A stretch of DNA of 64,000 nucleotides from an uncultured Gammaproteobacteria bacterium (GTDB lineage: Bacteria > Patescibacteriota > Microgenomatia > UBA1406 > GWC2-37-13): contig CAZLSE010000001.1 in the NCBI GenBank assembly GCA_964562055.1, positions 28,062 to 92,061 on the forward strand. Reading direction: 5' to 3'. Positions 2,251 through 50,687 of the stretch are shown one piece after another (positions within the stretch are counted from its first letter, which is position 1; each line of letters starts with the position of its first letter). The translations under genes and the position numbers were made by a program. Under the pieces are notes generated by a model. That model was not told where the DNA came from and made no database searches. It saw only the letters and a program-made list of their open reading frames with translations.

Positions 2251-5200
2251 TCATCTCAGTATAGTGGCTCCCTTCAGAAAGCCAAATGTTTTTGATAAGT
2301 TTTCAATAACTAGATTTAGTGCATCTTTAGTTGATTTCGGTGTAATAATAACGGTATCGAGTGACTGGCCAAGGTTATTCGCCTTATCTTTTGATAATGC
2401 GCGCAGATGATAAATTTTTGATGGACTGAGCCCGGTAATGGTAACGGTGTGGTTGGTGGTTTTATTCGTATCTTCTTGAGTTGTTTGATTATATGTAGAC
2501 CCTGTTCCCTGTCCGTATTCCACCTGTGTTGTTGCAGGCTCATCGGTGTCCCATGTTACTACTATCTGCGCACGTGCACCTTCCCCAACTCCAATAATAG
2601 TTGACTCTACATTAAGATTTTGTATTTCCGGCGGACGTACATCATTTGCTGTTTTTAACGTGCGCGTCTCCATCTTTGCTTCATTACCAACCGCATCTTT
2701 TCCTTTGATCAATATTGTGTAGTCCATTTCATCTGCGAGATTATTAAGTATTACCTCATGATTCCGCTTAAGCACAAGACTAATGTTGTCGGTTGCAAGT
2801 TGAGGCGTGTTGGTGGGATAGTACGTCACAATTGAGTTAATTGGTGTATTGGAAGTCCATAATAACCGAATGATGGCTGTCGGCATGCCCACCACCTGCT
2901 GCACCCGAATATTGGTTAATTTTGGAATGGGTAATGTTTCAAACGTGTAGTCATCGCTGTAATATACGTTAGACTCATCGTCCTCACCTGCAATACGCAT
3001 GTGATAGAGTGTGCCTTCTGTTAGATTTGTAATTTCAACGGTATATGCTGTTTCAGTTTTTGAAGTGGAGATACTTTCAACGCTCCCATAACTAATTGTT
3101 TTTCCATATTGCACCGATGCCTTAATAGCGCTTTTGATAGTAAATGTAATCTGAGCTGAGTTTATATTTACCCGTGAAAACTTTACATTCGATACAAATG
3201 GTGCCGCATTTGTCGTGAAGCTTAATTCTTCTGATTCTCCTGTATTACCATCTTCATCTGTCCACAATACCTTGTAGTAATAAGTCGCACCTGGATCAAG
3301 ACTGTTTAGTGATATGCTATGTGCAACTACCTGATCGGATGAACCTGCTTCATTGTTGTAATCGCCTGATGTTTTCCCATACTTAACAAACGAGTTACTT
3401 GTTCTGTCAGTTGACCATTCGATTACTGCTGATTTGGTTTTTACTGTAGCAGACACACTAGATACGAGGGTAGGTGCAATTTCCCACTTTCCATCTGGCA
3501 ACATGTGTACAGTAGTTGAAACTGTAGAACACTGATTAGTAATGTTGCATGCTTTTACACAATAATAGTTTTCAACTTGTGTAAGGTTGGTATGAACAAA
3601 CGATGTAAGTCTGGTTTCGGCAACTTTTGTAAACGATTCAAAACCAGTGGTACAGCTCGCATCAGCGGTTGTGGTATGGTATACGTTGTAATACGATACA
3701 CCCGCTGAACCGCTTGAGGCAGGCTGATCCCATGAAACTACCAATCTCCATTTTTCTTCATCTTTAACAGACAGATCTGCAATATCCATATTGGTAGGCA
3801 CTCCAGGAGCCGATGTGTTTGCATAGAAATTTACCGACGTATAGGCGTTATACGATATATTCCCCACCTCATCTTTTGCCACTACATACATGGTGTTTTC
3901 ATCCACCTGTGTCGCATACGTACCTAATGGTAAATACGTTTGTGAACCGACAAGGGTTACATTCTGTGCAGTGGGAAGTGCGTTTACTGAATAGTAATAC
4001 CGTAATCCGGCCTGTGTACCTCCAAAATATGCCGGAGGATCCCACGTGAATGAAAATTCACCGTTAGTACTATTTACCGGGTTCACCTCAAGATTTTGAG
4101 GGGCGCTTGGAGCGGTTTCTAATAGTTTATATACGACTGTAGCATAGGTTGACGCATAATTACCTGCAATATCTTTTGCCCGAAGATAGAATATATTGTT
4201 ACCTTCCTGATATGCAGATATACTTGCAACTGAGGTATCATTTGTGCATTGTTCAACTGAACCAATCGCTCCTGTTTTATAACAATAGCTTACATCGGGT
4301 GTTCCTCCACTCCAGGCAAATGTGTATGAGTTAATATTTGATGGACCAGGTGGATCGACAGTGAGAGTGGTAGGATTGTCGGGTCGCTGATCGTTAAATT
4401 TATAGATAAATGCATCATAATCAGTCGTACTTATGTTACCTGCCTCATCCTTTGTGCGGACTTTAAGATAATATGTTTGACCAGCGGTAAGCCCTGATGC
4501 AGTATAGGTATTACCTGACTGATACACACCCTCGTTCACAACGTCAGCACTTGCTGATGCACCAAAATATACATAATATCCATCTATACCAGAGCCATTT
4601 GCGCTATCAGTTGCACCGTTAACCGCCCCTTCTAGTGGCCAGGCAAAATGGGGAGATGGATAGTTATACCACGTATTTGTGGTAAGCGTTGCAGCCATTG
4701 TGGATGTTGTATATCCGGTTACTTGCGAGGGGTTGAGTGGTGGATCTGCGTCTTGATAATAGGACACGCTAAAGTCATTAATAGTTGGAGAATAGATATT
4801 ATCCGAAGAAGATAATACAATTTTAACTTGAATATATCTTTTTGGTGTTGAGCTTATTTTATACGAACGTGAAGTTCCAACGGTTTTTTCTGAAACCGTC
4901 TGTTGCCATTCATCCCATGTTGAACCATTATCTGAACTACGCGTATACGACGTAATTACGGTTCCGGTTGGGACATTGGCAGTTACATGAAGACGGGCAA
5001 ATCGATATACCGAACTTAAATCAAACGTTGATGATATAAATTCACCGGTACTTTCAAATGATGTATTTGCTGTTTGCATGATGTAGGAATACAAACCGTT
5101 TCCAAATGTGTTTGTACCTGCTCCTGCAATTACAAACATTTTGTCTGTACCATTTGAAGCTCCGGCACCTCCGGACGTTATTTGAGCTGGAACATTTGCA

Positions 5201-8200
5201 ATTGTTGACCACGTATTTCCTGATAGTGAATACTGGAGTGCTGCATTGGTATTTATACCGCGAGTAGCATAGATACTGTCTCCCCCATCAACCAAAAATC
5301 CGCTATTCCCGATAGTCGATCCGGAAGGTAAATCAGCTACTACCGCATCGTTCCATGAGGCGGATCCAGAAAGGGGTCCGTATCGGTAAAATCCAAGTTG
5401 TGTATTACCTCGAGATGCATACAGGTAATCATCTTTAATAATCATGTCAGACCCATATTGTGCGGTTGCGGGTATATTGCTGAGAGCTGTACTCCATTTG
5501 GATCCTGCACTTCCCAGTCTGTTAAACCGGTAAAAACTTTGAGTCGATGCTCCTCTTAACCAATATATGTACTGGGAACCATCATAAGCAAGCGAACTCC
5601 CCTCACCTACATCAAGTGGCGGAGGATCGCTCACCTCTTCAGACCAGACGTCGGTTGCGATGTCATAAACATACAACCTTCTATTGTAACTATTTGCAGT
5701 AGCATAAATTTTATTTACGTCCGGGAGATATACTAATTCTGCTCCGATATAAAAACCGGATGGCGCATCGGCAAGTTTAGTCGTTTCACCCGATGTGGCG
5801 TTATAACGAACAAAAATATTGTCAAAATTTCCTCGAGTAATATAAAAGTTATTTCCATCTCCTTTTACAATATCTGCTCCAAGACTAAAATTGCGTGAAT
5901 CAGCTCCTCTAAACCAGCCGCCAAATAATCCAACCGTTGGTATGACCCATGAATTTTTTGCAATATTAAATTTGTAGAATTGTGTGTTGCCTCCCCCTCT
6001 TAATACATAGAGAGTCCCATTCACATTTTTTAAAGTTGAACCATTTCCAATTGAAGCTGGCGCATCTGGAAGGGTGCTCCATGTCTCGGAATCAATGTCG
6101 TATTTATAGAAATCCACTTTTCCGTTTCCACCCAGTAAATAAATTGCATTTGTTGTTGCATCATACTCAATGCGAGCACCACCGTTAGCGAGTATGGGAA
6201 GATTGGGTAATGGAGTCCATGTATTTGTAGCGGTGTCGTATTCAGCAAACCCCGAACGTGCGTTACCCTGTATTGCGTACACCTTATCATTCCCCTTGAT
6301 TGCAAGATCGCCTCCATTATAAATTAAATTATTAATCTGATTGTCAGGAGTACCAAAATCAACATTTGCAAGTACCTCCCACGAATCGGCCTGCGTGTCA
6401 TACCGCATAAAGGTGTCATCAGAGTTACCTTTTAATGCATAGATATATTGTGAACCGTCAAACACGCTTGCCCCACCATAAAACACATTTTGCGGCGCAT
6501 CAACTACCGCCCCGTCTGACCATGTATTTGCACTTATGTTATAACTCCAAAAAGCTGTTGTGTTTTGCCCGCGCAGTGCATATAAATATCCCGATGGACC
6601 TTCTACTACGTCACCTCCTATATACCCAACAGCTGGCATAGTTGCTTTTGCAGTCCATACGTCCGTTGCAATATTGTATTCATAAAACGTATTTGTGTTA
6701 CCTGGAAACATGTAGAGTTTATTGTCCGAACTGCTATATGCAAGGTCTGAACCATAATTTTTAGCAACCGGAGAAAGTGCGACCCGCTCTTGTTGCCAAA
6801 AACCTGCTTTTGACTCTAGCCGAATTGAATCGTTGGTAACGTTTACCGTGTCTGTCGTTCCTGTTCCAAATTCTGCACTAGTCGTTTGAGTAACGGTTTG
6901 AGGAGGGGATACTCCAATATAGGTATAAATAAAACCGGTAGTAGGAGATGATGTGTTACCTGAAGCGTCTTTAACTTGCAATCTCAAATAGTACGTTTGC
7001 CCCTGCGCCATATCTGCAGTGGTAGTATATGTGGACGTTGTTTGAAATGAGCCCTCTGATTCTGGATTTGCACCACTATCTGTACCATAATACACATAAT
7101 AACCTGACACAGCGCTTTCCGCATCGGCTGCCCCGGTCCAACTAAAATACGGTGACTGATACCGATAACTTTGACCGGAACTTATACTCACACCTCCGGC
7201 TGCCTGCGAAAGTCCGGAAAAACCTGTGGGGTTAGAGGGGTTGCCTTCATCACCAACATAATTTATTACAATCGACTGAAGTGTGGGGGTTTGTGTCCTG
7301 TCTGCTGTGGCAGACAGTGTTGCTCTAATCTGAATGTATTTTTTTACCGGTGAGGCTATTACACTACTTGCAACCGCTTCCCATGACGACCATGTAATTC
7401 TGTCTGCGCTTGTGCGCGTTTCAAACGTAATAGCTGAATCATTAGGGGTAGAAACTGTAGAGGTAAGCGAAGTCCAACTTGTGACATAGGTGAGGTCTAT
7501 TGTTTCACTTGTCCATGTGCCCGTTATTGGATAGTTATATGCGGTAGGAGTGTACTGATACATGTGGAGTATACTCTGCCCAGATAACGAGTATGCAATA
7601 CCCGTTGTTGAATCAATCTCAAGTGAACCACCGTTATACGGACCGAGGTCATTTGGCCCATATGTTTGGATATTGTCAAGCTGTCTCCATGTATTGGTTG
7701 CTATTGTATACTCGTAAAATCCATTTTTATAATATCCTGCCTGAAAAAAAAGTTTTCCTGAATAATAACTCACGTCTGTTCCATAGTATGGAGCAAATGG
7801 GAGATTTGATATTTCAGACCAAGTATCTGTACCAATCGCATATTTCATAAGCTTGCTCATACCGTTACCTGGTATGGCGTATATATCAGTTCCATCAGAA
7901 ATGAGGCGCGATCCAACCGCCGCATCTGCATTATCAGGAAGGTCGGCAACTGCTACATCGCTCCAGGTATTTGTTGAAATTTGATAGCGATAAAAACTTC
8001 GAGTAGTTAAACCGCGTGTGGCATAAATAAAATCACCCGTTCCCGGGTAGGCAAGAGTTCCACCTGCACCGATAGTTGCTGGTGCAACAGCAAGTGTGCT
8101 CCATGATCCGCCAACAGTATTATAACTGTAAAACGTTGTCGTGCCTCCTCCGCGCATATAATAAATAATGTCACCGGCTCGTACTCCTTTTATGTCGTCA

Positions 8201-9405
8201 TTAAATGCTCCTGTGGTACTGGTAAGGGCAGACCATGTGCCAGTTGAAATGTGATAGCGGTAATAATGTACCTGATTTCCCCCTCGGCTAAAGTACAGAT
8301 ACCCATTATGATAAATGAGGTCGGATCCCGTACCCGGCGTAGCATTGCTTGCTGGAAGATCTGTCGGGCCTACAAATGAATTTAAATCTGTATTATATTT
8401 CCAGAATTCATAAGAATTGTTACCACGAAATACATATATATAGCCATCTCCAGAATGATATACGCTACCAACATATCGCGTTGTTTGAGGTGTATTGGTA
8501 AGCGTCAACCAAGTGTTTGTGCTTATCTTATAGCGATAAAAGCTTTGAGTGCCCTGATCACGTGTTACAAATATTTCATCATTTTTTATAGTGATTGTGT
8601 GATCTTCATTCATTGCTCCGGGTGCCACAGCGAGAGCGGGGCCAAGGGTTGATGTGGTGTGCCAGGTATTCGCAGCTATGTTATACCGATACATTGTGGT
8701 CGTATTCGCGCCACGCAGTGCATATAAATTACCTGAGTAATACACTAGACCGGCGCCCACGCCGATTGTTAGTGCAGGACTAGATAACGTTGACCACGTA
8801 TTCGTACCGGGAGTATATTTCCAAAAATCCGAAGTTGTTGTTCCTCGCAAGCAATAGATGGCTGACAAATCTGTCGCACATGATGTGCCCCCATACACTA
8901 AATCAGGCATACTCGATCTGTTTTCCCACGTATTAGTCTCAATGTTGTAGCGCGCAAAATCTTTTTGATACCCTCCAAACTCTGCATATATATAGCCATC
9001 AAGATACACTAATTGCGCCCCGGGATATGAATATCGAGGCGCTATGGCAAGGGTCTTCCAGGTATTATTTACCGGATCATAACGGATAAAGAGATTGTCA
9101 GCATTGAGAAGGAGATAGATAAACGTTCCATCTGATGCAATTCCCACCTGATCACCAAGCAGTATATTAGGTGTCCGCCAGGCCCGTGCACCCCATGATC
9201 CATCTGCTTTTAACTTTATTTCACCCTCTTTAGTGGTCGCTTCAACACCAATTCCTTGCCCATTAGTAAAGTCAACCGATGAAGTAAGTGTTCTGCTTGC
9301 CGCTTGAACCGATGTAGGAAGTAAAGAAAAAATTTGTGTATATGCTCCAAATAAACTAACAGAGTGTAAGCATAAAATAAGCAACGAAACAATTCTTTTC
9401 CGCAT
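2251..9405 (-). CDS. Giant secreted surface protein (2384 aa): two Kelch-like beta-propeller arrays, jelly-roll-like modules, multiple FN3 domains
   Basis: N-terminal signal peptide MRKRIVSLLILCLHSVSLFGAYT. More than 20 blades end in Y/W-x-Y-x4-5-W (YRYNIETNTWE, WKYTPGTNTWS, YEYNIATDVWT and others). FN3-like units are present (SGYYVYYG...TYYLRLQVKDASGN, DGYYVYFG...TYYLKVRTKDEAGN). The C-terminus has tandem FN3 units of the IEWSTDRTSNSFVKYG...ATYYYKV type. Confidence 0.85.
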   Translation of the reverse strand: MRKRIVSLLILCLHSVSLFGAYTQIFSLLPTSVQAASRTLTSSVDFTNGQGIGVEATTKEGEIKLKADGSWGARAWRTPNILLGDQVGIASDGTFIYLLLNADNLFIRYDPVNNTWKTLAIAPRYSYPGAQLVYLDGYIYAEFGGYQKDFARYNIETNTWENRSSMPDLVYGGTSCATDLSAIYCLRGTTTSDFWKYTPGTNTWSTLSSPALTIGVGAGLVYYSGNLYALRGANTTTMYRYNIAANTWHTTSTLGPALAVAPGAMNEDHTITIKNDEIFVTRDQGTQSFYRYKISTNTWLTLTNTPQTTRYVGSVYHSGDGYIYVFRGNNSYEFWKYNTDLNSFVGPTDLPASNATPGTGSDLIYHNGYLYFSRGGNQVHYYRYHISTGTWSALTSTTGAFNDDIKGVRAGDIIYYMRGGGTTTFYSYNTVGGSWSTLAVAPATIGAGGTLAYPGTGDFIYATRGLTTRSFYRYQISTNTWSDVAVADLPDNADAAVGSRLISDGTDIYAIPGNGMSKLMKYAIGTDTWSEISNLPFAPYYGTDVSYYSGKLFFQAGYYKNGFYEYTIATNTWRQLDNIQTYGPNDLGPYNGGSLEIDSTTGIAYSLSGQSILHMYQYTPTAYNYPITGTWTSETIDLTYVTSWTSLTSTVSTPNDSAITFETRTSADRITWSSWEAVASSVIASPVKKYIQIRATLSATADRTQTPTLQSIVINYVGDEGNPSNPTGFSGLSQAAGGVSISSGQSYRYQSPYFSWTGAADAESAVSGYYVYYGTDSGANPESEGSFQTTSTYTTTADMAQGQTYYLRLQVKDASGNTSSPTTGFIYTYIGVSPPQTVTQTTSAEFGTGTTDTVNVTNDSIRLESKAGFWQQERVALSPVAKNYGSDLAYSSSDNKLYMFPGNTNTFYEYNIATDVWTAKATMPAVGYIGGDVVEGPSGYLYALRGQNTTAFWSYNISANTWSDGAVVDAPQNVFYGGASVFDGSQYIYALKGNSDDTFMRYDTQADSWEVLANVDFGTPDNQINNLIYNGGDLAIKGNDKVYAIQGNARSGFAEYDTATNTWTPLPNLPILANGGARIEYDATTNAIYLLGGNGKVDFYKYDIDSETWSTLPDAPASIGNGSTLKNVNGTLYVLRGGGNTQFYKFNIAKNSWVIPTVGLFGGWFRGADSRNFSLGADIVKGDGNNFYITRGNFDNIFVRYNATSGETTKLADAPSGFYIGAELVYLPDVNKIYATANSYNRRLYVYDIATDVWSEEVSDPPPLDVGEGSSLAYDGSQYIYWLRGASTQSFYRFNRLGSAGSKWSTALSNIPATAQYGSDMIIKDDYLYASRGNTQLGFYRYGPLSGSASWNDAVVADLPSGSTIGNSGFLVDGGDSIYATRGINTNAALQYSLSGNTWSTIANVPAQITSGGAGASNGTDKMFVIAGAGTNTFGNGLYSYIMQTANTSFESTGEFISSTFDLSSVYRFARLHVTANVPTGTVITSYTRSSDNGSTWDEWQQTVSEKTVGTSRSYKISSTPKRYIQVKIVLSSSDNIYSPTINDFSVSYYQDADPPLNPSQVTGYTTSTMAATLTTNTWYNYPSPHFAWPLEGAVNGATDSANGSGIDGYYVYFGASASADVVNEGVYQSGNTYTASGLTAGQTYYLKVRTKDEAGNISTTDYDAFIYKFNDQRPDNPTTLTVDPPGPSNINSYTFAWSGGTPDVSYCYKTGAIGSVEQCTNDTSVASISAYQEGNNIFYLRAKDIAGNYASTYATVVYKLLETAPSAPQNLEVNPVNSTNGEFSFTWDPPAYFGGTQAGLRYYYSVNALPTAQNVTLVGSQTYLPLGTYATQVDENTMYVVAKDEVGNISYNAYTSVNFYANTSAPGVPTNMDIADLSVKDEEKWRLVVSWDQPASSGSAGVSYYNVYHTTTADASCTTGFESFTKVAETRLTSFVHTNLTQVENYYCVKACNITNQCSTVSTTVHMLPDGKWEIAPTLVSSVSATVKTKSAVIEWSTDRTSNSFVKYGKTSGDYNNEAGSSDQVVAHSISLNSLDPGATYYYKVLWTDEDGNTGESEELSFTTNAAPFVSNVKFSRVNINSAQITFTIKSAIKASVQYGKTISYGSVESISTSKTETAYTVEITNLTEGTLYHMRIAGEDDESNVYYSDDYTFETLPIPKLTNIRVQQVVGMPTAIIRLLWTSNTPINSIVTYYPTNTPQLATDNISLVLKRNHEVILNNLADEMDYTILIKGKDAVGNEAKMETRTLKTANDVRPPEIQNLNVESTIIGVGEGARAQIVVTWDTDEPATTQVEYGQGTGSTYNQTTQEDTNKTTNHTVTITGLSPSKIYHLRALSKDKANNLGQSLDTVIITPKSTKDALNLVIENLSKTFGFLKGATILR

Positions 9406-16564: not shown

Positions 16565-19500
16565 CTATGATTTTACCACAAAGTTAGCTATCTTCCCTTT
16601 TACATAAATAAGTTTGTATTGCTTACCCTCAAGATATTTTTTCAAGCCAACATCGGATTGTACTGTTTTTTCAACCATATCTTGTGTCGGCTCTCCCTGG
16701 ATGGTTATTGTTCCTCTGAATTTGCCATTTATCTGAATCGGAACAGTTACTGACGTCTGTTTTATATCAACTTTTGTTTGGGTTGGCCATTGTGAACTAT
16801 GAATCGACGATGTTTCTCCATACATTCTCCATATTTTCTCAGTCACAAACGGTGCAAATGGTGCTAATATTTGAAGAAATTTCTTTGCTTCATCCCATGA
16901 AAGACTTTCGACCTTCGACTTTTGACTTTCGACTACAGACTCATATTCATTCAGAAATTCCATCATGGCGGCTATTGCGGTATTAAATTTGGTCTGTGCA
17001 ATATCATCTCCCACTTTTTGAATAGTCTTGTTGAGCTTGGCAACCAGTTCAGAATCGGACTTTTGACTTTCGACCTTGGACTTTTGACTTGTATAGAGAT
17101 TCCACACTCTTTTTATAAATCGGTGTGCACCCTGAAGAGCAGATGTTGACCACGCAATTTCCATATTAAAAGGGGCCATAAACATCTCATAGATTCTAAG
17201 CGTATCCGCTCCATATTGGGCAACCACATCATCGGGATTAATGGTGTTTCCCCACGACTTACTCATTTTTCGGTGATCTTCAGCAAGCACCATGCCGACA
17301 TTCCTAAGTCGTAAAAATGGTTCTGGAAAGGTAAGGAGCCCCAAATCCTGAAGAGCCTTCACCCAAAACCGCGCGTACAATAAATGGAGCACAGCATGTT
17401 CTGCTCCACCCAAATACCAGTCAACCGGTAACCAACCAGCGTCCTTCGAGCTCCTAGAGTTTTGACTAGCAAGCCACTCATTTTTCAAATTTTGATATTT
17501 GATTTTTGATTTTTGATTTTTTACTCCAATTTGCATCACAAATTGGAGAAAGTACCAACAACTTCCCGCCCAGTTAGGCATGGTGTCTGTTTCACGCGAT
17601 GCCTTACCGCCACACAGTGGACACGACACTTCTTTAAATCCGCTTATTGCCGTTAATGGCGACTCACCTGTGTCGGTTGGCTCGTACGATTTTGTATAAG
17701 GAAGTTCAAGGGGTAGTTCCGACTCATCAATCATGGTCCATCCCTTTACTGAGCGTACCTCAATAAACCGCAGTAACTCAAATTGTTCTTTGCTGTCTTT
17801 TGTCCCCGCACTAAAATGAGCTTTCCCTGGAACTACATGTACATTTTCCGCTCCAAATATCTGTTCTGCAAACGGTCTCATTTCTTTGGGAAGATATGGG
17901 TCGTTTTCGCCAAACACAACTGTAATTTTTCGCACATTCTTCTTAATCTTTTCCCAATCGATGGCATGATTGTTATAAAGTGTATCGAGTGCGTCGCCTG
18001 TTTTTTGATCAAACGCATTAACTAAGATGGGTTTATATGCGGAATCCACATAAAGCACCGGAGCAACCAAAACAAGCTGATCTATTTTGTTTTCTTGTGC
18101 AATGTGTAGTGCGGTACCCGCTCCGCTTGAATGACCAATAATTATTGATGACGGCCGTGTATATTGTGAGTAGTTTGAGCGTAAAAATGCCATTCTCTCC
18201 TCAAATTTTGGAAGCTTGGCATCCGGTAGAGTTGGCGACACTGCCTCAACTCCACTTAATTTCAGATGATTTACCAGCCATGGAAACCAATTTCCATTCC
18301 CATTACCCCAAGTGCCGTGAATAATGAGTGCGTTCGTATCTTGTCTGTTCTTTTCGCATACATCACAATGAACCATTGGGATAGGTTCACCCCAGTATCG
18401 TTGTCGTGAAAATATCCAGTCACGAAGATGATAGGTTACCGTACGCTTACCCCATCCTTTATCTTCAAGATAGTCCATTACTTTCTGAGTTGCTTCGTGA
18501 ATGTCTAGTCCATTTAAAAATTCAGAGTTAATCATTGTGCCCTCTTCCTCTTGTACCTGTTCTTTTTTGGTGATAAGGCCAGTATCGCCATCTTTTCCTT
18601 TAACAACGCGCAATACATCAATTCCAAACTCTGTAGCAAATTCAAAGTCACGAAGATCATGACCCGGAACGCCCACAACAGCACCAGTCCCAAATCCAGC
18701 CAATACAAAGTCAGAAATCCAAATAGGCATTTCACGTCCGTTTAAGTTATTGATAGCATAAAATCCGGTAAACACACCTGTTTTTTTTCTCCCCTCTGCA
18801 GATCGCTCCATTTCATTTTTTGCTTTAGCTTTCTCAATATAATCTTTAATCTCTTTTAAGTGTGTACCTTCCGCCTTTAATTCTGAACTCAGTAGTTTAC
18901 CTACGAATGGGTGTTCGGGAGCTATAACAATAAACGTTGCCCCAAAATTAGTATCTGGCCGAGTGGTAAAGCAGATAATTGTCTCTGTTGAATCCTTAAT
19001 TGTATACTCAATATTTATCCCCTCTTTCTTGCCAATCCAGTTCCGTTGCATTTCCAATATCCCTCGTGGCCAGTCAAGCAAGTCAAGATCCTTGAGAAGT
19101 CTATCTGCATACGCAGTTATTCTAAAAATCCATTGAGGAAGTTCTTTTTTAGTTATTTCCGACCCACACCGCTCGTGAGTACCATTTGCAAGCACTTCCT
19201 CCTCGGCAAGACCTGTTTTACACTTCGGACAGAAATTTATAGGCGTATTGCGTTTGTACAACAGTCCCATCTTAAAAAACTGCATAAAAAGCCACTGTGT
19301 CCATTTGTAGTAGCTTGGATCGGTGGTAGAAAACTCTCGACTCCAGTCATACGAATACCCAAGCATGTTCATCTGTCTTTTAAAGTTTGCAATATTACCC
19401 GGTACCATATCCATGGGATTTTTTTTCGCTTTAATTGCGGCATTCTCTGCCGGCAACCCAAATGCGTCCCAACCCATAGGATGTAACACATCTTTTCCCG

Positions 19501-19711
19501 TCATTTTAAAATAGCGGGCCAATACATCTGTGCCTGTATATATACGAACGTGACCAACATGAAGTCCAGCTCCTGAGGGATACGGAAACATTGATAGACA
19601 ATATGATTTATTTTCCTGACTTTCGACTGTCGAATAAACCTTTTCCTTCTCCCATAGCTCCAGCATTTTAGCTTCAAATTCTGTTGGGTTATATTTTTCT
19701 GATTCGTCCAT
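16565..19711 (-). CDS. leuS: Leucyl-tRNA synthetase with an inserted alpha/beta-hydrolase domain and several repeat-derived loops
   Basis: HIGH motif (HVGHVRIY), CP1 editing motifs (TTRPDT, GTGAVVGVPGHDLRDFEFA), KMSKS (RKMSKSWGN). The start is set at MDESEKYNPTEFEAKMLELW, which matches the canonical LeuRS N-terminus. Confidence 0.9.
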   Translation of the reverse strand: MDESEKYNPTEFEAKMLELWEKEKVYSTVESQENKSYCLSMFPYPSGAGLHVGHVRIYTGTDVLARYFKMTGKDVLHPMGWDAFGLPAENAAIKAKKNPMDMVPGNIANFKRQMNMLGYSYDWSREFSTTDPSYYKWTQWLFMQFFKMGLLYKRNTPINFCPKCKTGLAEEEVLANGTHERCGSEITKKELPQWIFRITAYADRLLKDLDLLDWPRGILEMQRNWIGKKEGINIEYTIKDSTETIICFTTRPDTNFGATFIVIAPEHPFVGKLLSSELKAEGTHLKEIKDYIEKAKAKNEMERSAEGRKKTGVFTGFYAINNLNGREMPIWISDFVLAGFGTGAVVGVPGHDLRDFEFATEFGIDVLRVVKGKDGDTGLITKKEQVQEEEGTMINSEFLNGLDIHEATQKVMDYLEDKGWGKRTVTYHLRDWIFSRQRYWGEPIPMVHCDVCEKNRQDTNALIIHGTWGNGNGNWFPWLVNHLKLSGVEAVSPTLPDAKLPKFEERMAFLRSNYSQYTRPSSIIIGHSSGAGTALHIAQENKIDQLVLVAPVLYVDSAYKPILVNAFDQKTGDALDTLYNNHAIDWEKIKKNVRKITVVFGENDPYLPKEMRPFAEQIFGAENVHVVPGKAHFSAGTKDSKEQFELLRFIEVRSVKGWTMIDESELPLELPYTKSYEPTDTGESPLTAISGFKEVSCPLCGGKASRETDTMPNWAGSCWYFLQFVMQIGVKNQKSKIKYQNLKNEWLASQNSRSSKDAGWLPVDWYLGGAEHAVLHLLYARFWVKALQDLGLLTFPEPFLRLRNVGMVLAEDHRKMSKSWGNTINPDDVVAQYGADTLRIYEMFMAPFNMEIAWSTSALQGAHRFIKRVWNLYTSQKSKVESQKSDSELVAKLNKTIQKVGDDIAQTKFNTAIAAMMEFLNEYESVVESQKSKVESLSWDEAKKFLQILAPFAPFVTEKIWRMYGETSSIHSSQWPTQTKVDIKQTSVTVPIQINGKFRGTITIQGEPTQDMVEKTVQSDVGLKKYLEGKQYKLIYVKGKIANFVVKS
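16906..16940. repeat. Heptamer micro-array, TTTCGAC family, 5 units, inside leuS
   Basis: TTTCGAC CTTCGAC TTTTGAC TTTCGAC TACAGAC on the + strand. Encodes VVESQKSKVESLS on the minus strand. Confidence 0.8.
17054..17088. repeat. Heptamer micro-array, TTTCGAC family, 5 units, inside leuS
   Basis: ATCGGAC TTTTGAC TTTCGAC CTTGGAC TTTTGAC. Encodes TSQKSKVESQKSDSE. Confidence 0.8.
17484..17525. repeat. Heptamer micro-array, TTTGATT variant, 6 units, inside leuS
   Basis: TTCAAAT TTTGATA TTTGATT TTTGATT TTTGATT TTTTACT. Encodes KNQKSKIKYQNLKNE. Confidence 0.75.
19614..19634. repeat. Heptamer micro-array, TTTCGAC family, 3 units, inside the leuS 5' region
   Basis: TCCTGAC TTTCGAC TGTCGAA. Encodes STVESQE. 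Confidence 0.6.
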
Positions 19712-19772
19712 ATATATCAATTTTGGTATAAAATTGTAAATTTTTATGTACTTAATAAATGAATATAATTCA

Positions 19773-20792
19773 TTATTCAAATAGCTTTAGTAGATTATAC
19801 ACCTTCTCTTTTACTTTTTCTGTCACCTCAATTGCCACAATCCCTCTGTCCCTCATACCATACATCACTCGTGTCCCGAGCGGAGATATAAGTACAACGG
19901 GTAGAACCAATAAGTCTTCTTCTCCATCAATAATGAGTTGTTTTATGGCTCTTTTATGCTCTAAACTAATTAATTTGAAAAGTGCTTTAATTGAATCTTG
20001 TGAAATTGTTCCTTTTTCATTTAGAGCATATAGACAATCTTTTTGTATAATTTTCTCAAGATATTCTTTGTTTAGGGCTTTTCGGAGAGTTTTTTTATCT
20101 ATTACCGAAAAAGTGGGGGAAAAACCTCTTTTTACAAATTCATGTGTCACTACATCGCCTACAGTTATCCACATTGTGTCCCCCAGAGTTGTGGCTAAAT
20201 TGTGTAACGATGCAGTTTTTGTGAATAAATACTCCTCAATAGTCCGAAAAGAGTGGCCCAGTGGCATTCTTAAAGCTGGTATAAGTGATTTTGGCAGATG
20301 ATGTACTTTTCTGCTAAATAATAGGCTTCTGTATGATGTTCCATGCCTATTTATGTATCCCTGCCTGATGCGTGTTGATGATATTACCACATTATCATTA
20401 CCTTTTTTTAGGTCTATAAAAACCACTGAAAGGGGCTTCATGCCGAGCTCAACGCGTTTTTTATTGATAAGATTTGCCCCTTTTTCTGTATCTTGTGTAA
20501 TAACAATTGCATCGATAGAACGCTCTAAAATGGTTGGACCATAGATATCATTAATCCTTACAATAGTGAATTGTCTATTAAAAACCTGTGCATAGGTGCT
20601 TACATTTTTTCTGCGCGTAACCCACGAATCATGACATTCACGTTTGAGTTTTTGGAGAGCCATTTTTTGTGAAGTTATGCCGATAGTAACTTTTTGCCCG
20701 ACTTTAAAGCACTTTCGTATCAACTGTTTATGACCTTCATGAAACGTATCAAACGTGCCTCCGCATACAACATGGGAAAACATAGAGCACAA
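19773..20792 (-). CDS. Fusion of archaeal-type phosphopantetheine adenylyltransferase (cytidylyltransferase fold) and DUF359-type GTP-dependent dephospho-CoA kinase
   Basis: The N-terminal half has CGGTFDTFHEGHKQL (nucleotidyltransferase HxGH) and ISSTRIR. The C-terminal half has GDVVTHEF...SVIDKKTLRK...IDGEEDLLVLPVVLISPLGTRVMYGMRDRGIV, matching the DUF359/COG1909 pattern as I remember it. Confidence 0.65.
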   Translation of the reverse strand: MCSMFSHVVCGGTFDTFHEGHKQLIRKCFKVGQKVTIGITSQKMALQKLKRECHDSWVTRRKNVSTYAQVFNRQFTIVRINDIYGPTILERSIDAIVITQDTEKGANLINKKRVELGMKPLSVVFIDLKKGNDNVVISSTRIRQGYINRHGTSYRSLLFSRKVHHLPKSLIPALRMPLGHSFRTIEEYLFTKTASLHNLATTLGDTMWITVGDVVTHEFVKRGFSPTFSVIDKKTLRKALNKEYLEKIIQKDCLYALNEKGTISQDSIKALFKLISLEHKRAIKQLIIDGEEDLLVLPVVLISPLGTRVMYGMRDRGIVAIEVTEKVKEKVYNLLKLFE

Positions 20793-21946: not shown

Positions 21947-23065
21947 TTACCTCGTCACCTGATAACTCTTGACAGTCTCCAGAAGTTTTTTTGCTTCCTC
22001 ATTTTTTTCAAAATGCGCATGCACTGGACAAAGTAACCGGTCAAGATAGTCTGATACTGCAGTTTTTAAGTCCATTGGGTGAAGCTTTTTTTCTGCAAAA
22101 GCAGTTTCAAGCTCGGCATAGGTTGCAAAGCGGAGTGTGCCCCCCCATTTTTCGGGCCGTTCGATAACAAACTCAGTAATACCAAGACGATCAAATGACT
22201 CAAAGATAATATATTTACAATACTCAAGCACAGGATTTTCCTTTATATCACCTTCGAGGCAGTACGCTTTATTTATTTTACGCTTAATATCTTCTGTGGT
22301 ATCGGTCATAAAAATTGCACTGTCCGGCATTGATTTTGACATTTTCCTCTCTATTGTTTCCTGAATTTTTGCATTTTGCATTTCACTTTCGACTTCCGAC
22401 TTTAGACTTTTGACTTTTTGTAGTCCCATTAGCATGTGGTGACTTACAACAACCGGCTTCCAATACCCAAGTTGCGGCCCCACTTCGCGCGCGAGCATAT
22501 TTACTTTTCGTTGATCCATTCCCAGTTGTGTAATCTTTGCGCCAAGCATAAAAATATCTGCAACCTGCATACACGAATAGATAATATGCGCGCCCGTAAG
22601 TTTTTCAAGCGACTCCTCACGCCCCATCATCTCTGCAGTACGAACAAATCGTTTTAGAGCGTTTGACTTTCCCACTTGTAAAACCAACTTCCAATAATCA
22701 GGATTTTTAGCCATATCAGATGCCCACATAAATTCAACGTGGTCAAGATCCATTCCTGACGCACGCCACACCTCAATAAAATAACGTCCGACTGTTTTTA
22801 TCTTTTCAAGATCACCGCCCATTTTATTATTCGCCATCGCATGCCAGTCTGCAACCCACATGCGGAACTTCACACCCGCTTTAATCATCTTGTTTACATT
22901 TATTGCACGAAGAAGACCTTGGGCGATATGAATCTGTCCCGATGGTTCAAATCCATCATACGCAATTAGTTCTTCTCCACTTTCTAGGTAGTTTTTTAAC
23001 TCATCACTTCCAATAATCTCTTCACCAACTTGATTGATAAGATTGAATTTGTCTTGTGTATTCAT
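21947..23065 (-). CDS. tyrS: Tyrosyl-tRNA synthetase, archaeal/eukaryote-like type
   Basis: YDGFEPSGQIHIAQGL (HIGH-equivalent), VADWHAMANNKMGGDLEKIKTVGRYFIEVW, GMDQRKVNMLARE and KMSKS closely parallel the plant-type TyrRS as I recall it. The start is set at MNTQDKF. Confidence 0.85.
   Translation of the reverse strand: MNTQDKFNLINQVGEEIIGSDELKNYLESGEELIAYDGFEPSGQIHIAQGLLRAINVNKMIKAGVKFRMWVADWHAMANNKMGGDLEKIKTVGRYFIEVWRASGMDLDHVEFMWASDMAKNPDYWKLVLQVGKSNALKRFVRTAEMMGREESLEKLTGAHIIYSCMQVADIFMLGAKITQLGMDQRKVNMLAREVGPQLGYWKPVVVSHHMLMGLQKVKSLKSEVESEMQNAKIQETIERKMSKSMPDSAIFMTDTTEDIKRKINKAYCLEGDIKENPVLEYCKYIIFESFDRLGITEFVIERPEKWGGTLRFATYAELETAFAEKKLHPMDLKTAVSDYLDRLLCPVHAHFEKNEEAKKLLETVKSYQVTR
22380..22414. 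repeat. Heptamer micro-array, TTTCGAC family, 5 units, inside tyrS next to KMSKS
   Basis: ATTTCAC TTTCGAC TTCCGAC TTTAGAC TTTTGAC. Encodes KVKSLKSEVESE. Confidence 0.8.
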
Positions 23066-23072
23066 ATGTTTA

Positions 23073-24371
23073 TTATATACCAAGTGCAATTTTTAATGCA
23101 TCCTCTCTCTCCCCCGTAAATGCGTGCACTTTTTCCGCAAACATATCTGCTGGCGTTTTTTTTGCTTTAACTCGCTCATTCAGTATTGAAAAAAACGGAG
23201 CTAAATCCTCACTGTCCATTCCCAATTGGACCAACGCATCGTGAGCACGGCGCACCTCTCGTTCGAGTTCTTCTCCGAACGGAAGAATTCCAACCCGCAT
23301 AGCAAGCGCCCTTCGTTCCCTCACCTCTTGTATCGGCATCAGTTGTTCTTGTGTCATTTTAGACCATTGCAATCTACCAAGGTAAAACAACATAACGGCA
23401 ATATCCTCTTCAACAGTTGGCTGAATAGAAACAGGGCGAAACTCAACCACAGCAGAATTATCGATAATCTTAATTCGGGTATCCTGCCAAAATAGACCTA
23501 TGCCAATACGGAGAGCATTTTGTTCATCATCCAAAATAAACGGATGACTCCCGACCCTTTCAAAATAATCTTCTATTGATGAAAAGTATTCAGTTGGAAG
23601 TCCTATCCGAAGTCCTTTACCGTCTTTTCTCTCTTGATCCGACCGTGTATCGTGGCTGATTTCCCATGCGGTTGCACGAACATCATTAAAAAATGTGTCC
23701 TTTCCTGCAATAAACCGTGCGTTACCCGATAGTGCCACGACCCATGGACCAATCATAAGAGACCTATTGGTTAAGTCAACCGCATCCTCAAGACTTTCCG
23801 CTTCAATATTGCTCTGTAAACTATTAAGGAGTGCCACAACAGCTGCATTGTTTACATCTACGCGCTCCTCCCATATGCCCAGTGTAGTTTCAGTGTGTGT
23901 TCGATGCGCATTATGAAAATCGGGCACTTTCTGGTATTTTGGTTTACTTGTACGCTCTATTTGTTCTAGCGGGATGAGCGGTTGAGTTCCAATACGGAGC
24001 ATACGTGTATCATGATGCGATGCGGCTGTCACCATTTGCATGTCCCGCTCCCTTACCTGCTCAACAAGCTGTGCAAGTCCATCTGGCTCATTTAGCACAA
24101 TAGGGTCTGTGCGCCATTCAATTTGAGCAGCGCCTAACTCTGGATCGGCACTTGGCACTTCGGCACACATCGCGTCACGAATGTGCTCTTGAATGGGTAG
24201 TCCGTTAGTATGAACCACCGAAGCCTCCATCTCAAACCCCACTCGAAGTACTCCTGGTTTTTTAATAAACGTATCAGGCGAATTAACAACGTCCGCAACC
24301 TGACGTCTAAATGCAGCTTGCATCGCTCGTTCGCGTTCGGGACTGTTTCCTATTTCTTGTCTTGTTGTCAT
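23073..24371 (-). CDS. Glutamate-cysteine ligase family 2 (YbdK-like) carboxylate-amine ligase
   Basis: Eye alignment to E. coli YbdK: LRVGFEMEASVV vs TLGIELEMQVV, ELGAAQIEWRTDP, VALSGNARFIAGKDT vs ALSAASPYMQGTDT, FWQDTRI...VEFRPVSIQ vs HWDIRP...VEVRVMDT. Confidence 0.55.
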   Translation of the reverse strand: MTTRQEIGNSPERERAMQAAFRRQVADVVNSPDTFIKKPGVLRVGFEMEASVVHTNGLPIQEHIRDAMCAEVPSADPELGAAQIEWRTDPIVLNEPDGLAQLVEQVRERDMQMVTAASHHDTRMLRIGTQPLIPLEQIERTSKPKYQKVPDFHNAHRTHTETTLGIWEERVDVNNAAVVALLNSLQSNIEAESLEDAVDLTNRSLMIGPWVVALSGNARFIAGKDTFFNDVRATAWEISHDTRSDQERKDGKGLRIGLPTEYFSSIEDYFERVGSHPFILDDEQNALRIGIGLFWQDTRIKIIDNSAVVEFRPVSIQPTVEEDIAVMLFYLGRLQWSKMTQEQLMPIQEVRERRALAMRVGILPFGEELEREVRRAHDALVQLGMDSEDLAPFFSILNERVKAKKTPADMFAEKVHAFTGEREDALKIALGI

Positions 24372-29050: not shown

Positions 29051-31000
29051 ATGACAAACATCACCGACCTACAAACACTTGCCAAGCGTGTGCGAAAAAA
29101 TATTGTTACCTCTACAACTGCAGCGGGAACAGGACATCCTTCTTCATCTCTTTCTGCTGTTGAGCTTACTGTTCCGCTCTTTTTTGACGGGTACTTCAAG
29201 CAGGATACTACGCATCCGGAATATATTTCAAACGACCGTTTTGTTTTATCGAAGGGGCATGCTGCGCCCCTCTTATTTTCACTCTACGAGGCGGCGGGTG
29301 TGATTACCGAAAAAGAACTTCTTACTCTTCGTAAGTTTGATTCACGACTCCAAGGCCACCCAACCCCCGAGTTCCCTTATGCAGATGTTACAACGGGCAG
29401 TTTAGGGCAAGGGCTTTCGGTGGCAGTTGGTATGGCGATGGGAATACTAAAAAAATTTCAAATTTTAAATTCTAAATTTCAAATTCCGCGGGTTTATGTT
29501 CTTCTGGGTGATTCAGAGTTTGCAGAGGGACAAAATTATGAAGCACTCCAGCTTGCCGGACACTATTCGCTTTCCAACCTTATTGCCGTACTTGATGTGA
29601 ATCGGCTTGGACAACGCGGGGAAACTCAGCTCGGATGGGACGTGAAGACATATAAAAAACGTTTAGAGTCGTTTGGATGGGATGTAGTAGTAATAGAGAA
29701 TGGGAATTCTCTGGAGGAAGTATCTGCAGTGTATAGGTCTCATCTCACCGCACAAAGATCAAAACCGCTCATGCTAATTGCTAAAACAAAAAAAGGTGCG
29801 GGCGTGCAGTTTATGGAAGATAAAGACGGATGGCATGGTAAACCTATTCCGGGGAATCAACTTGAAGAAGCTTTGCGTGTTATTGGAGATTTTGACACTA
29901 CTATTGTGGGAACCATTACGAAACCATCAATTACAAATGACAAATTACAAATAACAAATCAATCCTCAAATGCCAATGACCAAACGTTACACGTTACACG
30001 TTACACGCTACACGACAAAGTAGCCACCCGTGAGGCGTATGGTCAAGCGCTTGCAGACTTGACACAAAAAAACAAGGATGTAATTGCACTTGATGCTGAA
30101 ACATCCAACTCCACCTATGCAGAGTTTGTTAAAAAAGAAACGCCCGAGCAATTTATTGAAACATATATTGCTGAACAAAATATGGTCTCGATGGGCTTGG
30201 GTATGTCTAAGGTGGGCTGGATACCGTTTGTGTCGAGCTTTGCCGCATTCCTCACCCGTGCATTTGACCAGATCCGTATGGCTCAGTATTCAAAACCCAA
30301 TATGACTGTGGTTGGCTCACATGCTGGTTGTTCCATTGGACCGGACGGGGCTTCACAAATGGCACTTGAAGATATTGCCATGATGCGAAGCGTACGTGAA
30401 AGTGTTGTGCTCTATCCATCAGACGCAGTCTCTACCTATGTTCTAATTCATCAGGTTGCAGGTCTTACTGGTCTTCACTATATTCGTACCACACGTGAAA
30501 AAACCCCGGTACTATATGGACCCGACGAGCTGTTTCCTGTTGGAGGACTCAAAATACACTATGCGTCTCGTGTAACGCACAACGTAAATCGTGAAGCGTC
30601 TGGACAAAGAGATAATACGTTACACGCTACACGCTACACGACCGACGCGGTAATTATAGGCGCGGGTATAACGCTCCATGAGGCGCTCAAGGCGCAAAAA
30701 ATACTCAGTGAAAAGAAAGTTAATACTGTCGTAGTAGATTTATACTCGGTAAAACCACTTGACGGCAACACTATTGCAAAACTTGCTCAAAACACAAAAA
30801 AACTAATAGTTGTTGAGGACCACCACGCCGCTGGCGGCATTGGTGAAGCCGTGCTATCTGAACTTTCGACTTTCGACCTTCGACTTTCGACTCAATTTAT
30901 CCATTTATGTGTCCGCAAAGAACCCCGCTCAGGAACGCCTGAGGAGCTTATGCGGTATGAGGAGATTGATGCCGAGGCTATAATAAAAAAAGTAATATAG
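29051..31000 (+). CDS. tkt: Transketolase, N- and C-terminal halves fused, with repeat-derived insertions
   Basis: TPP-binding half (GHPSSSLS, GSLGQGLSVAVGMA, LLGDSEFAEGQNYEA) and pyrimidine-binding/C-terminal half (KVATREAYGQAL, YIAEQNMVSMGLGM, GPDGASQMALEDIAMMR). Confidence 0.9.
   Translation: MTNITDLQTLAKRVRKNIVTSTTAAGTGHPSSSLSAVELTVPLFFDGYFKQDTTHPEYISNDRFVLSKGHAAPLLFSLYEAAGVITEKELLTLRKFDSRLQGHPTPEFPYADVTTGSLGQGLSVAVGMAMGILKKFQILNSKFQIPRVYVLLGDSEFAEGQNYEALQLAGHYSLSNLIAVLDVNRLGQRGETQLGWDVKTYKKRLESFGWDVVVIENGNSLEEVSAVYRSHLTAQRSKPLMLIAKTKKGAGVQFMEDKDGWHGKPIPGNQLEEALRVIGDFDTTIVGTITKPSITNDKLQITNQSSNANDQTLHVTRYTLHDKVATREAYGQALADLTQKNKDVIALDAETSNSTYAEFVKKETPEQFIETYIAEQNMVSMGLGMSKVGWIPFVSSFAAFLTRAFDQIRMAQYSKPNMTVVGSHAGCSIGPDGASQMALEDIAMMRSVRESVVLYPSDAVSTYVLIHQVAGLTGLHYIRTTREKTPVLYGPDELFPVGGLKIHYASRVTHNVNREASGQRDNTLHATRYTTDAVIIGAGITLHEALKAQKILSEKKVNTVVVDLYSVKPLDGNTIAKLAQNTKKLIVVEDHHAAGGIGEAVLSELSTFDLRLSTQFIHLCVRKEPRSGTPEELMRYEEIDAEAIIKKVI
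29454..29488. repeat. Heptamer micro-array, AATTTYA family, 5 units, inside tkt
   Basis: AATTTCA AATTTTA AATTCTA AATTTCA AATTCCG. Encodes KKFQILNSKFQIP. Confidence 0.75.
29930..30016. repeat. Two abutting heptamer arrays (ATNACAA x5-7, then ACGYTAC x4.7) forming the inter-domain linker of tkt
   Basis: ATTACAA ATGACAA ATTACAA ATAACAA ATCAATC CTCAAAT..., then ACGTTAC ACGTTAC ACGTTAC ACGCTAC ACGAC (29984-30016). Encodes ITNDKLQITNQSSNANDQTLHVTRYTLHD. Confidence 0.8.
30617..30642. repeat. Heptamer micro-array, ACGYTAC family, 3.7 units, inside tkt
   Basis: ACGTTAC ACGCTAC ACGCTAC ACGAC. Encodes TLHATRYTT. An inverted copy CGTGTAACG lies at 30569-30577. Confidence 0.8.
30864..30891. repeat. Heptamer micro-array, TTTCGAC family, 4 units, inside tkt
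   Basis: TTTCGAC TTTCGAC CTTCGAC TTTCGAC. Here it is read in the sense orientation and encodes LSTFDLRLST. Confidence 0.85.
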
Positions 31001-49760: not shown

Positions 49761-49763
49761 TGA

Positions 49764-49938
49764 GTTTATAAAGTTCATAACGTTTATAAAGTTTGTAAAG
49801 TCTGAATGACGAAAGGCAAAAACTACAAGTTACAAGCTATAATGCAACAAAATATTTACAGCGCACTAAAGCGATACAGTTTAGCGTATGTGTTGTCGTT
49901 TGGGCTATTGGTTTTGAGCTTTCAGCTTTTAGCTATTC
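49764..49938. repeat. Composite micro-array leader A: 9-mer GTTTATAAA x4-5, heptamer GYTACAA x4, spacer, heptamer GCTTTNA x5
   Basis: GTTTATAAA GTTCATAAC GTTTATAAA GTTTGTAAA GTCTGAATG (49764-49808). ACTACAA GTTACAA GCTATAA TGCAACA (49822-49849). GCTATTG GTTTTGA GCTTTCA GCTTTTA GCTATTC (49904-49938). Confidence 0.75.
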
Positions 49939-50686: not shown

Positions 50687-50687
50687 A

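Follow-up and report, generated by a model that had tools for sequence, protein, structure and literature searches.

We analysed a 64,000-nucleotide (nt) stretch of contig CAZLSE010000001.1 of a Roizmanbacteria genome, here called the window, which carries a gene for tyrosyl-tRNA synthetase (TyrRS) on its minus strand. A tandem array of 7-nt units (heptamers) lies inside this gene, upstream of the codons for the class I motif KMSKS. The gene, the array and the segments around it are located as follows.

21947..23065, - strand: TyrRS gene, archaeal/eukaryote-like type, 372 amino acids (aa), ATG at 23065, stop codon included (list of open reading frames, ORFs)
22919..22930, - strand: codons of HIAQ (H46-Q49), the HIGH-equivalent class I signature (translation; invariant columns in an alignment of 30 homologues)
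22380..22417, - strand: heptanucleotide array of 5.4 imperfect copies, GTCNAAA on the coding strand and TTTNGAC on the + strand (Tandem Repeats Finder, sequence, pattern statistics)
22367..22383, - strand: adjoining heptamer run, TTTTGCA x2.4 (TGCAAAA on the coding strand), encoding MQNAK (Tandem Repeats Finder)
22346..22420, - strand: 25-aa segment between HHMLMGL and KMSKS, codons Q216-R240, QKVKSLKSEVESEMQNAKIQETIER (translation of 22331-22420, - strand)
22331..22345, - strand: codons of the KMSKS motif, K241-S245 (translation; invariant in 30 aligned homologues)

The TyrRS product matched Pfam tRNA-synt_1b (PF00579; 1.9e-47, 162 bits, cut-off 21.1) and the NCBIfam equivalog NF006330 "tyrosine--tRNA ligase" (369 bits, cut-off 220). 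The database proteins closest to it bear the annotation tyrosine--tRNA ligase and come from Candidatus Roizmanbacteria/Patescibacteria, and protein P0001, 98% identical to it, also has 372 aa and the same start. The AlphaFold model (mean predicted local distance difference test score, pLDDT, of 77) was matched by Foldseek to the TyrRSs of Phaseolus, Plasmodium, Leishmania, Pyrococcus and Nanoarchaeum with template modelling (TM) scores of 0.76-0.80 and a probability of 1.0. Both its Rossmann-fold catalytic domain and its C-terminal domain superpose on solved TyrRS structures. More than 150 invariant columns of the alignment are kept in the window protein. The ratio of nonsynonymous to synonymous substitution rates (dN/dS) was 0.087 against the relative L081 (96.8% nt identity, independent assembly; related loci are denoted by L and a number, related proteins by P and a number). 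This value comes from the L081 comparison only; the pairing with L083 was unusable past an indel elsewhere in the gene. The TyrRS gene is under strong purifying selection. Syntenic orthologues were found at 80 loci from Roizmanbacteria/Microgenomates genome bins, and there is no second tyrS copy within the 64-kb window. The best explanation of these sequence data is that the gene encodes the organism's working TyrRS, of the archaeal/eukaryote-like type as in Roizmanbacteria and other Microgenomates. The original prediction had kept a non-functional paralogue in view, which finds no support in the dN/dS ratio, the intact motifs and the NCBIfam score.

Positions 22380-22414 of the + strand read ATTTCAC TTTCGAC TTCCGAC TTTAGAC TTTTGAC. 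Tandem Repeats Finder reported period 7, 5.4 copies, 83% matches and the consensus TTTCGAC for 22381-22417, and 24 of 31 positions match at a lag of 7. The array is translated in frame as KVKSLKSEVESE (K217-E228). The heptamer array that had been noted at 22380-22414 is therefore real and is translated as part of TyrRS. With at least three head-to-tail copies, beyond what is expected by chance, it is a heptanucleotide simple sequence repeat (SSR). The adjoining run prolongs the period-7 signal with a 1-nt slip of register, giving one merged segment (22367-22420) at a threshold of 16/21. The run could be a coincidence, or else a remnant of the 3' end of the array after decay; L083-L085, which are related loci, conserve its QNAK codons.

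No inverted repeats were seen in 22300-22480, nor any flanking target duplications or terminal motifs, and the predicted transcript fold at the array was no better than that of shuffled sequence (z = +0.53). The lack of inverted repeats and the fold score rule out a hairpin or RNA element as the reading of the TyrRS insert. An in-frame palindromic mobile element, similar to Rickettsia palindromic elements (RPEs) or miniature inverted-repeat transposable elements, was also considered for the window insert and rejected, as 22300-22480 holds no inverted repeat. In a separate observation, the codons of KMSKS (AAAATGTCAAAAT, 22333-22345) hold a GTCAAAA heptamer as in the array at 22407-22419, 74 nt upstream in the gene. 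The two sites form a direct repeat of 12-13 nt with 85-92% identity, which may be a coincidence or a seed for misalignment.

The array is base-for-base identical in the window, L081 and L082, the latter two being independent assemblies with 36 differences from the window elsewhere in the gene. In L083 (79.5% nt identity) it has the same length and a few substitutions. Because it is identical in L081 and L082 and of unchanged length in L083, the array is old, fixed and decaying, and neither an assembly artefact nor a currently unstable tract. A search of metagenome contigs with an exact-flank pattern and a variable gap gave no match to a length variant of the window array. An all-against-all blastn comparison of 85 loci and the window aligned 78 kb at 80% identity or more, between very divergent pairs, and none of the 80 indels of at least 5 nt lay in a period-7 context.

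The pre-KMSKS segment in relatives

In a phmmer alignment with Phaseolus TyrRS (7sc6/8zmi), window residues 218-238 remained unaligned between HHMLPGLQQ and QEKMSKS. The Phaseolus protein reads HHMLPGLQQ-G-QEKMSKS, with 5 aa from GL to KMSKS compared with 25 aa in the window, and the same residues have no counterpart in kinetoplastid (Leishmania) and Plasmodium TyrRSs. Thus, the segment is indeed about 20 aa longer than in plant-type TyrRS, as had been proposed. Attribution of these 20 aa to the array and its flanks did not hold, since the minimum loop among about 200 Roizmanbacteria/Microgenomates relatives is already 16-17 aa (pattern GKPxxxxxDALQRTIEL). Among the 118 nearest proteins, the distance from GL to KMSKS was 17 aa in 60 (e.g. 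GKPVSNEQDALQRTIEL) and 25 aa, as in the window, in 34; the others had 21, 23, 26, 27, 32 or 40 aa. At the 80 genome loci it ranged from 16 to 65 aa and was mostly 17 aa, with the final eight or so residues conserved as ..A(L/I)QRTIE(L/R). Compared with its nearest 17-aa relatives (L001, L002 and L004; 82-85% identity), the window protein has a surplus of only about 8 residues (24 nt).

Long segments at this position also occur outside the clade. HMMER aligned the TyrRSs of Nanoarchaeum equitans (7fg6), Pyrococcus horikoshii (2cyc) and Aeropyrum pernix (2cya) straight across the loop. These archaeal proteins resemble the window protein in having about 20-30 aa from the end of the GL strand to KMSKS, with a final acidic/amphipathic stretch that borders on the motif; the segments themselves show little sequence similarity to that of the window and, as far as protein sequences show, are not repeat-encoded in the archaea. 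Loop length was bimodal in the 82 diverse family representatives in which both loop landmarks could be located: 56 had 3-5 aa (eukaryote-like) and 26 had at least 10 aa, with a maximum of 100. Given the clade minimum of 16-17 aa, the archaeal lengths and this bimodality, a long pre-KMSKS segment is normal for this branch of the family, and the plant type is the wrong baseline. What the repeat contributes is an insert of about 8 aa at a variable spot, and not an unexpected intrusion of 20 aa. Nor does the array lie directly beside KMSKS, as the repeat-encoded peptide and the motif are kept apart by 12 conserved residues, MQNAKIQETIER. Loops of 25-27 aa are also found without repeat DNA in many relatives, among them L003, L008, L018, L034 and L010 (lag-7 score about 0.2), so that a loop of this length is not peculiar to repeat DNA, a finding that the original prediction had itself named as speaking against its reading.

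In the structure prediction, which had been proposed as a check for a disordered excursion, pLDDT is below 50 over residues 204-245, and a helix is modelled over residues 226-242, at low confidence. The low pLDDT is compatible with a mobile excursion, as weak evidence. Since the segment is normal and variable in this branch and the repeat adds only a short, probably floppy stretch, there is no sign of an unusual catalytic mechanism, which makes the result deflationary for TyrRS biology.

Several relatives carry other sequences at the same site. Different heptamer arrays were found in the pre-KMSKS loop of L005 (AATATCC/AAATCCC), L014 (GTCAAAG), L022 (GTTCAAA x4), L053 (AATATCA) and L061 (AAACTCG). 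The orthologous arrays of P0097 (L084) and P0109 (L085) differ in length by three units (exactly 21 nt, 7 aa), and that of L084 contains three identical GTCGACA units. This difference is a whole-unit length variation among relatives. In addition, palindromic sequences occupy the same loop in L013, L020 and L043 (GTAGAGACG...CGTCTCTAC) and in L003, L010, L011 and L015 (...TAACCT(C/A)(C/G)GAGGTTA..., with the longer arms TTCTAACCTC/GAGGTTAGAA in L010, L011 and L015). The inserts of L010, L011, L013, L015, L020 and L043 combine an inverted repeat with dispersed copies. In L068 the pre-KMSKS loop has the baseline 17 aa, yet a perfect (CTACAAG)x4 array lies in a second variable TyrRS loop (L068:10852-10891), where it encodes PTSYKLQATSF near the position of residue 290 of the window protein. 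Judging from these alignments, the pre-KMSKS connector is hypervariable and a recurrent insertion site, and it appears to be a permissive surface spot. A neighbour-joining tree of TyrRS, built with the loop masked, was too poorly resolved to count gains and losses of inserts: loops of the 17-aa, palindromic and heptamer kinds are mixed with one another on short branches.

The palindromic elements, exemplified by GTAGAGACGCAAAATCTTGCGTCTCTAC and ..TTCTAACCTCGGAGGTTAGAA.., lie in frame in the TyrRS loop of other Roizmanbacteria, at L013:10658, L020:10661, L043:10661, L010:4517, L011:2405, L015:6697 and L003:5546. Copies were also seen elsewhere, in frame in another gene or between genes, at L034:1245, L031:3309, L010:14763, L021:11654 and L052:3210. 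This dispersal resembles the behaviour of RPEs.

Period-7 arrays in the window and in related genomes

The window contains 11-13 period-7 arrays; at a threshold of at least 17/21 lag-7 matches the count was 11. In 200 shuffles that permuted triplets within 3-kb blocks, the mean was 0.005 arrays and the maximum 1. At a threshold of 18/21, period 7 gave nine arrays and each other period from 1 to 24 gave none or one. The recurrence of the same heptamer family in the window, which had been pointed out before, was confirmed with the family pattern TTTNGACTTYNGAC (at most one mismatch): there were 17 matches compared with 0.72 expected, and they fall in the genes for leucyl-tRNA synthetase (LeuRS), TyrRS, transketolase and a P-type ATPase. 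Sixteen of the 17 place the TTTNGAC family on the + strand, but they derive from only five arrays. An effect of replication strand on orientation was considered and cannot be claimed from so few arrays. Besides the array in TyrRS, the members of the family are as follows.

16903..16934, - strand: TTTNGAC-family array (GACTTTC on the + strand) in LeuRS, encoding VVESQKSKVES, in a variable loop about 8 aa longer than in the nearest relatives
17058..17090, - strand: TTTNGAC-family array in LeuRS, encoding SQKSKVESQKS, in a variable loop
30862..30892, + strand: TTTCGAC array, opposite sense, in transketolase, encoding LSTFDLRLST, in a variable loop
39870..39890, - strand: TTTNGAC-family array of about 3 copies in the P-type ATPase gene (pattern match)

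In total, LeuRS holds three period-7 arrays and transketolase five. In alignments with orthologues, all these arrays fall in loops or linkers whose length varies and where other lineages have different low-complexity inserts. The five arrays of the transketolase gene (29051-31000, + strand) have the units AAATTTC, AATTACA, ACGTTAC, ACGCTAC and TTTCGAC, and the length of the linkers and loops that hold them differs greatly between relatives.

A census of the 80 related loci and the window (1.29 Mb in total) revealed 143 period-7 arrays, compared with 0-19 for periods 4-13 and 73 for period 14, which is a harmonic of 7. The excess of period 7 over other periods is a lineage-wide trait. Array density is lineage-specific, ranging from zero in many bins to 0.72 per kb in L022, and the diversity of units is high, with dozens of different heptamers across the related loci. 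Most arrays (121 of 143, 85%) are inside ORFs of at least 100 codons, which make up 92% of the bases. The intergenic arrays often have units with stop codons on both strands (14 of 22, compared with about 14% of random genomic heptamers). This is the pattern expected if arrays arise everywhere and those that break ORFs are purged from genes.

Origin of the array and known repeat systems

We consider it probable that the array is an old heptanucleotide microsatellite, near-neutral repeat DNA that is tolerated and translated in a permissive connector of a loop that existed before it, and not a catalytic innovation. The ancestral pre-KMSKS extension would consist of a short variable connector after the ...SHHMLxGL strand, followed by a conserved stretch, ..A[LIK][QI][RQE]TIE[LR], that runs into KMSKS and is modelled as a helix with low confidence. 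The connector would hold the partly decayed GTCNAAA x5.4 array, adding about 8 aa of a peptide rich in Lys, Ser, Glu and Val that is probably flexible. The array itself would be one product of a lineage-wide tendency of many Roizmanbacteria genomes to form period-7 tandem arrays everywhere. Because a 7-nt unit is read in all three frames, survival inside a gene would depend on a net length change that is a multiple of three (most simply 3 units = 21 nt = 7 aa), on a cyclic unit that is free of stop codons in all three frames of the sense strand, and on a peptide that falls in a tolerant loop. The observed arrays are consistent with all three. Turnover would proceed by out-of-register realignment (slippage) in steps of 21 nt and decay by point mutation; such realignment in replication is how arrays of this kind are usually explained. 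Change of the array in 21-nt steps is probable; we infer slippage as the generator, neutrality of the peptide and disorder of the loop.

Some observations weigh against this explanation. No length polymorphism was seen within the species (L081 equals L082, with no further variants), so ongoing slippage at this array is unsupported. The neighbour-joining tree is poorly resolved and the number of independent array gains is uncertain. The surplus over the 17-aa relatives is 24 nt and not 21 nt, which excludes a clean three-unit expansion of the baseline as the origin. Stepwise growth through +7 and +14 intermediates would mean frameshifts in an essential gene, so that an array could be born inside the gene only through multi-unit events or some other mechanism, which slippage by itself does not readily supply. 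This frameshift problem and the copy number typical of young arrays (4.4-4.7) leave room for multi-unit bursts or another mechanism. Finally, exactly 25 aa are kept in many lineages despite different units, which could reflect selection on loop length, i.e. a function.

The recurrence of a 25-aa loop on different DNA is also what would be expected if the insert were an adaptive lineage-specific module, for example a charged, flexible or helical arm that tunes loop dynamics, contacts the tRNA acceptor stem or mediates a protein interaction, with the repeat DNA only as its origin. Between the window protein and P0002, sequence identity in the loop (4 changes in 24 aa) is similar to that outside it, and several archaeal TyrRSs retain long pre-KMSKS segments, which would also fit such a module. 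We nevertheless regard this as unlikely. No other stretch of the protein is less conserved than the part encoded by the repeat, which L001 and L002, the nearest relatives with a 17-aa loop (84-85% identity), lack and which is replaced elsewhere by unrelated sequences of 16-65 aa. Arrays of the same kind lie between genes and also in LeuRS, transketolase and an ATPase, in loops unrelated to that of TyrRS, and AlphaFold confidence at the TyrRS loop is very low. Even less credence is due to a decaying or non-functional paralogue, or to a phase-variable (contingency) gene switched by repeat number, which we consider very improbable. A change of one 7-nt copy would indeed shift the frame, but the dN/dS ratio, the class I motifs, the 150+ invariant columns, the syntenic orthologues in 80 genomes and the single copy in the window all argue against it, as do the imperfect units and the lack of any difference in the array between independent assemblies. 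Specifically, a phase-variable locus was rejected on account of the imperfect units, the same array in L081, L082 and the window, and the intact frame in all relatives.

Alternatively, arrays might be deposited in single bursts by an active sequence-adding or mobile mechanism, such as a small mobile cassette or reiterative synthesis from a template at breaks, with the TyrRS loop as a recurrent landing site. Arrays inside essential single-copy genes, where the +7 and +14 intermediates would be lethal, and the copy number of young arrays are in favour of this explanation. So are the similar unit families in different genomes (GTTACGA, CTACAAG and GTCAAAA), the sharply lineage-specific density and the fact that other lineages carry dispersed palindromic elements in this very loop. 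However, a single template is unlikely given dozens of different heptamers, and neither flanking target duplications nor terminal motifs were seen. Pfam scans of 25 window ORFs revealed no reverse transcriptase, integrase or similar protein, the ORFs from about 41 kb onward being mostly unscanned, and an indel of 21 nt, such as that between L084 and L085, is predicted by slippage. Deposition by such a mechanism therefore seems quite unlikely. We suggest, only tentatively and as a doubtful possibility, a wider scheme in which an active lineage-specific process makes heptamer arrays in multi-unit bursts across the genomes, of about 1 Mb, of many Roizmanbacteria lineages. Such a process would be a major undescribed source of loop peptides in essential enzymes (TyrRS, LeuRS and transketolase), with the TyrRS connector as a recurrent hotspot that is also hit by palindromes. 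If this were true, the birth of arrays inside essential genes, with lethal single-unit intermediates, would point beyond ordinary stepwise slippage.

The explanation as a tolerated microsatellite has parallels in known repeats, the closest being the excess of heptanucleotide SSRs in certain prokaryotic genomes. Tandem heptamers of cyanobacteria are called short tandemly repeated repetitive (STRR) sequences in the wider literature. They have been reported for Calothrix PCC 7601 (PMC4692102), and related heptamer repeats, described as mainly intergenic, are known from cyanobacteria, Beggiatoa and Xanthomonas, including the GGGNATC repeats of Xanthomonas and Nostoc (PMC4679880, PMC4692102). According to these two articles, which cite Mrazek, Guo and Shah (2007), heptanucleotide SSRs are over-represented in some prokaryotes, and polymerase slippage with a contact length of 7 nt has been proposed as their source (PMC4679880, PMC4692102). 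Like the window arrays, prokaryotic heptanucleotide SSRs are head-to-tail 7-nt units, typically in 2-6 copies, that are dispersed and lineage-specific and have many unit variants. However, the known ones occur mainly in large, often high-GC genomes and are over-represented in non-coding DNA and under-represented in ORFs (PMC4692102). In contrast, the genomes of the Candidate Phyla Radiation (CPR) considered here are small (near-complete contigs of about 1.2 Mb) with about 40% GC, and 85% of their arrays are in ORFs, including those of aminoacyl-tRNA synthetases. Another example is the TAACTGA heptamer, which forms direct repeats of 2-6 copies per set in marine Beggiatoaceae, Cyanobacteria and Bacteroidetes (PMC4679880). 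These are likewise tandem heptamers, and a few lie inside ORFs as 7-aa repeats (LSVISYQ), but a single unit predominates, which is found mostly between genes, immediately ahead of start codons, and for which a regulatory role was proposed (PMC4679880). The units of the window lineage are numerous and lie mostly inside genes, and their positions are not linked to gene starts. We found no paper describing heptamer arrays in CPR/Patescibacteria, in a literature coverage that was incomplete.

Repeats inside coding sequences have other precedents. Borg tandem repeats make disordered regions in proteins, and all the intragenic units are divisible by three (PMC9879509). The window arrays resemble them in being lineage-specific, fast-evolving and located inside ORFs, where they add low-complexity or disordered peptide, and differ in having a 7-nt unit, so that a peptide period of 7 aa results only through three units, and in being short and decayed.

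RPEs are palindromic mobile elements of 100-150 bp and the classic case of repeated DNA that is translated in frame in essential proteins; Ogata et al. (2000) reportedly described their in-frame insertion in protein-coding genes. As with the window array, a selfish or neutral repeat is translated as a surface-loop peptide of essential proteins whose function is kept. The window insert differs from RPEs in having no inverted repeat, and the palindromic inserts of other Roizmanbacteria at the TyrRS loop are the closer analogue.

The wider pattern is that small CPR genomes, usually called streamlined, carry dozens of translated heptamer arrays and small palindromic inserts in housekeeping proteins, and this is a more interesting lead than the TyrRS array itself. 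This pattern marks insertion-tolerant loops of these enzymes, and it cautions those who annotate genomes or predict structures that low-complexity segments of this kind are driven by the DNA. It also offers a natural system for studying the preference for period 7 and the way in which non-triplet repeats gain a foothold in essential genes.

Neighbouring genes and other repeats

TyrRS is flanked by a fusion of a cytidylyltransferase-like domain with DUF359 (19773-20792, - strand) and by a GCS2-family (glutamate-cysteine ligase-like) protein (23073-24371, - strand). The gene order GCS2-like, TyrRS, DUF359 fusion is conserved in part in L083. LeuRS (16565-19780, - strand) contains an alpha/beta-hydrolase insert (Pfam Ser_hydrolase and Abhydrolase_6) at aa 485-657, after the editing domain. 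The LeuRSs of L002 and L004 align over the full length and apparently share this insert, and most other relatives stop at about residue 480 in the first high-scoring segment pair. A 2384-aa ORF at 2251-9405 (- strand) with many Kelch repeats and fibronectin type III domains is likely a giant surface protein.

Two ORFs without a Pfam match (49806-50333 and 50667-51767) have a 9-nt tandem repeat, AGTTTATAA, in 4-5 copies before or overlapping their 5' ends (49763-49801 and 50704-50747). These repeats are followed by CTACAAG-type and GCTTTCA heptamers (49913-49934, 50745-50777 and 50815-50843), the latter unit encoding a hydrophobic N-terminal segment (LSFQLLA...) in the two ORFs.

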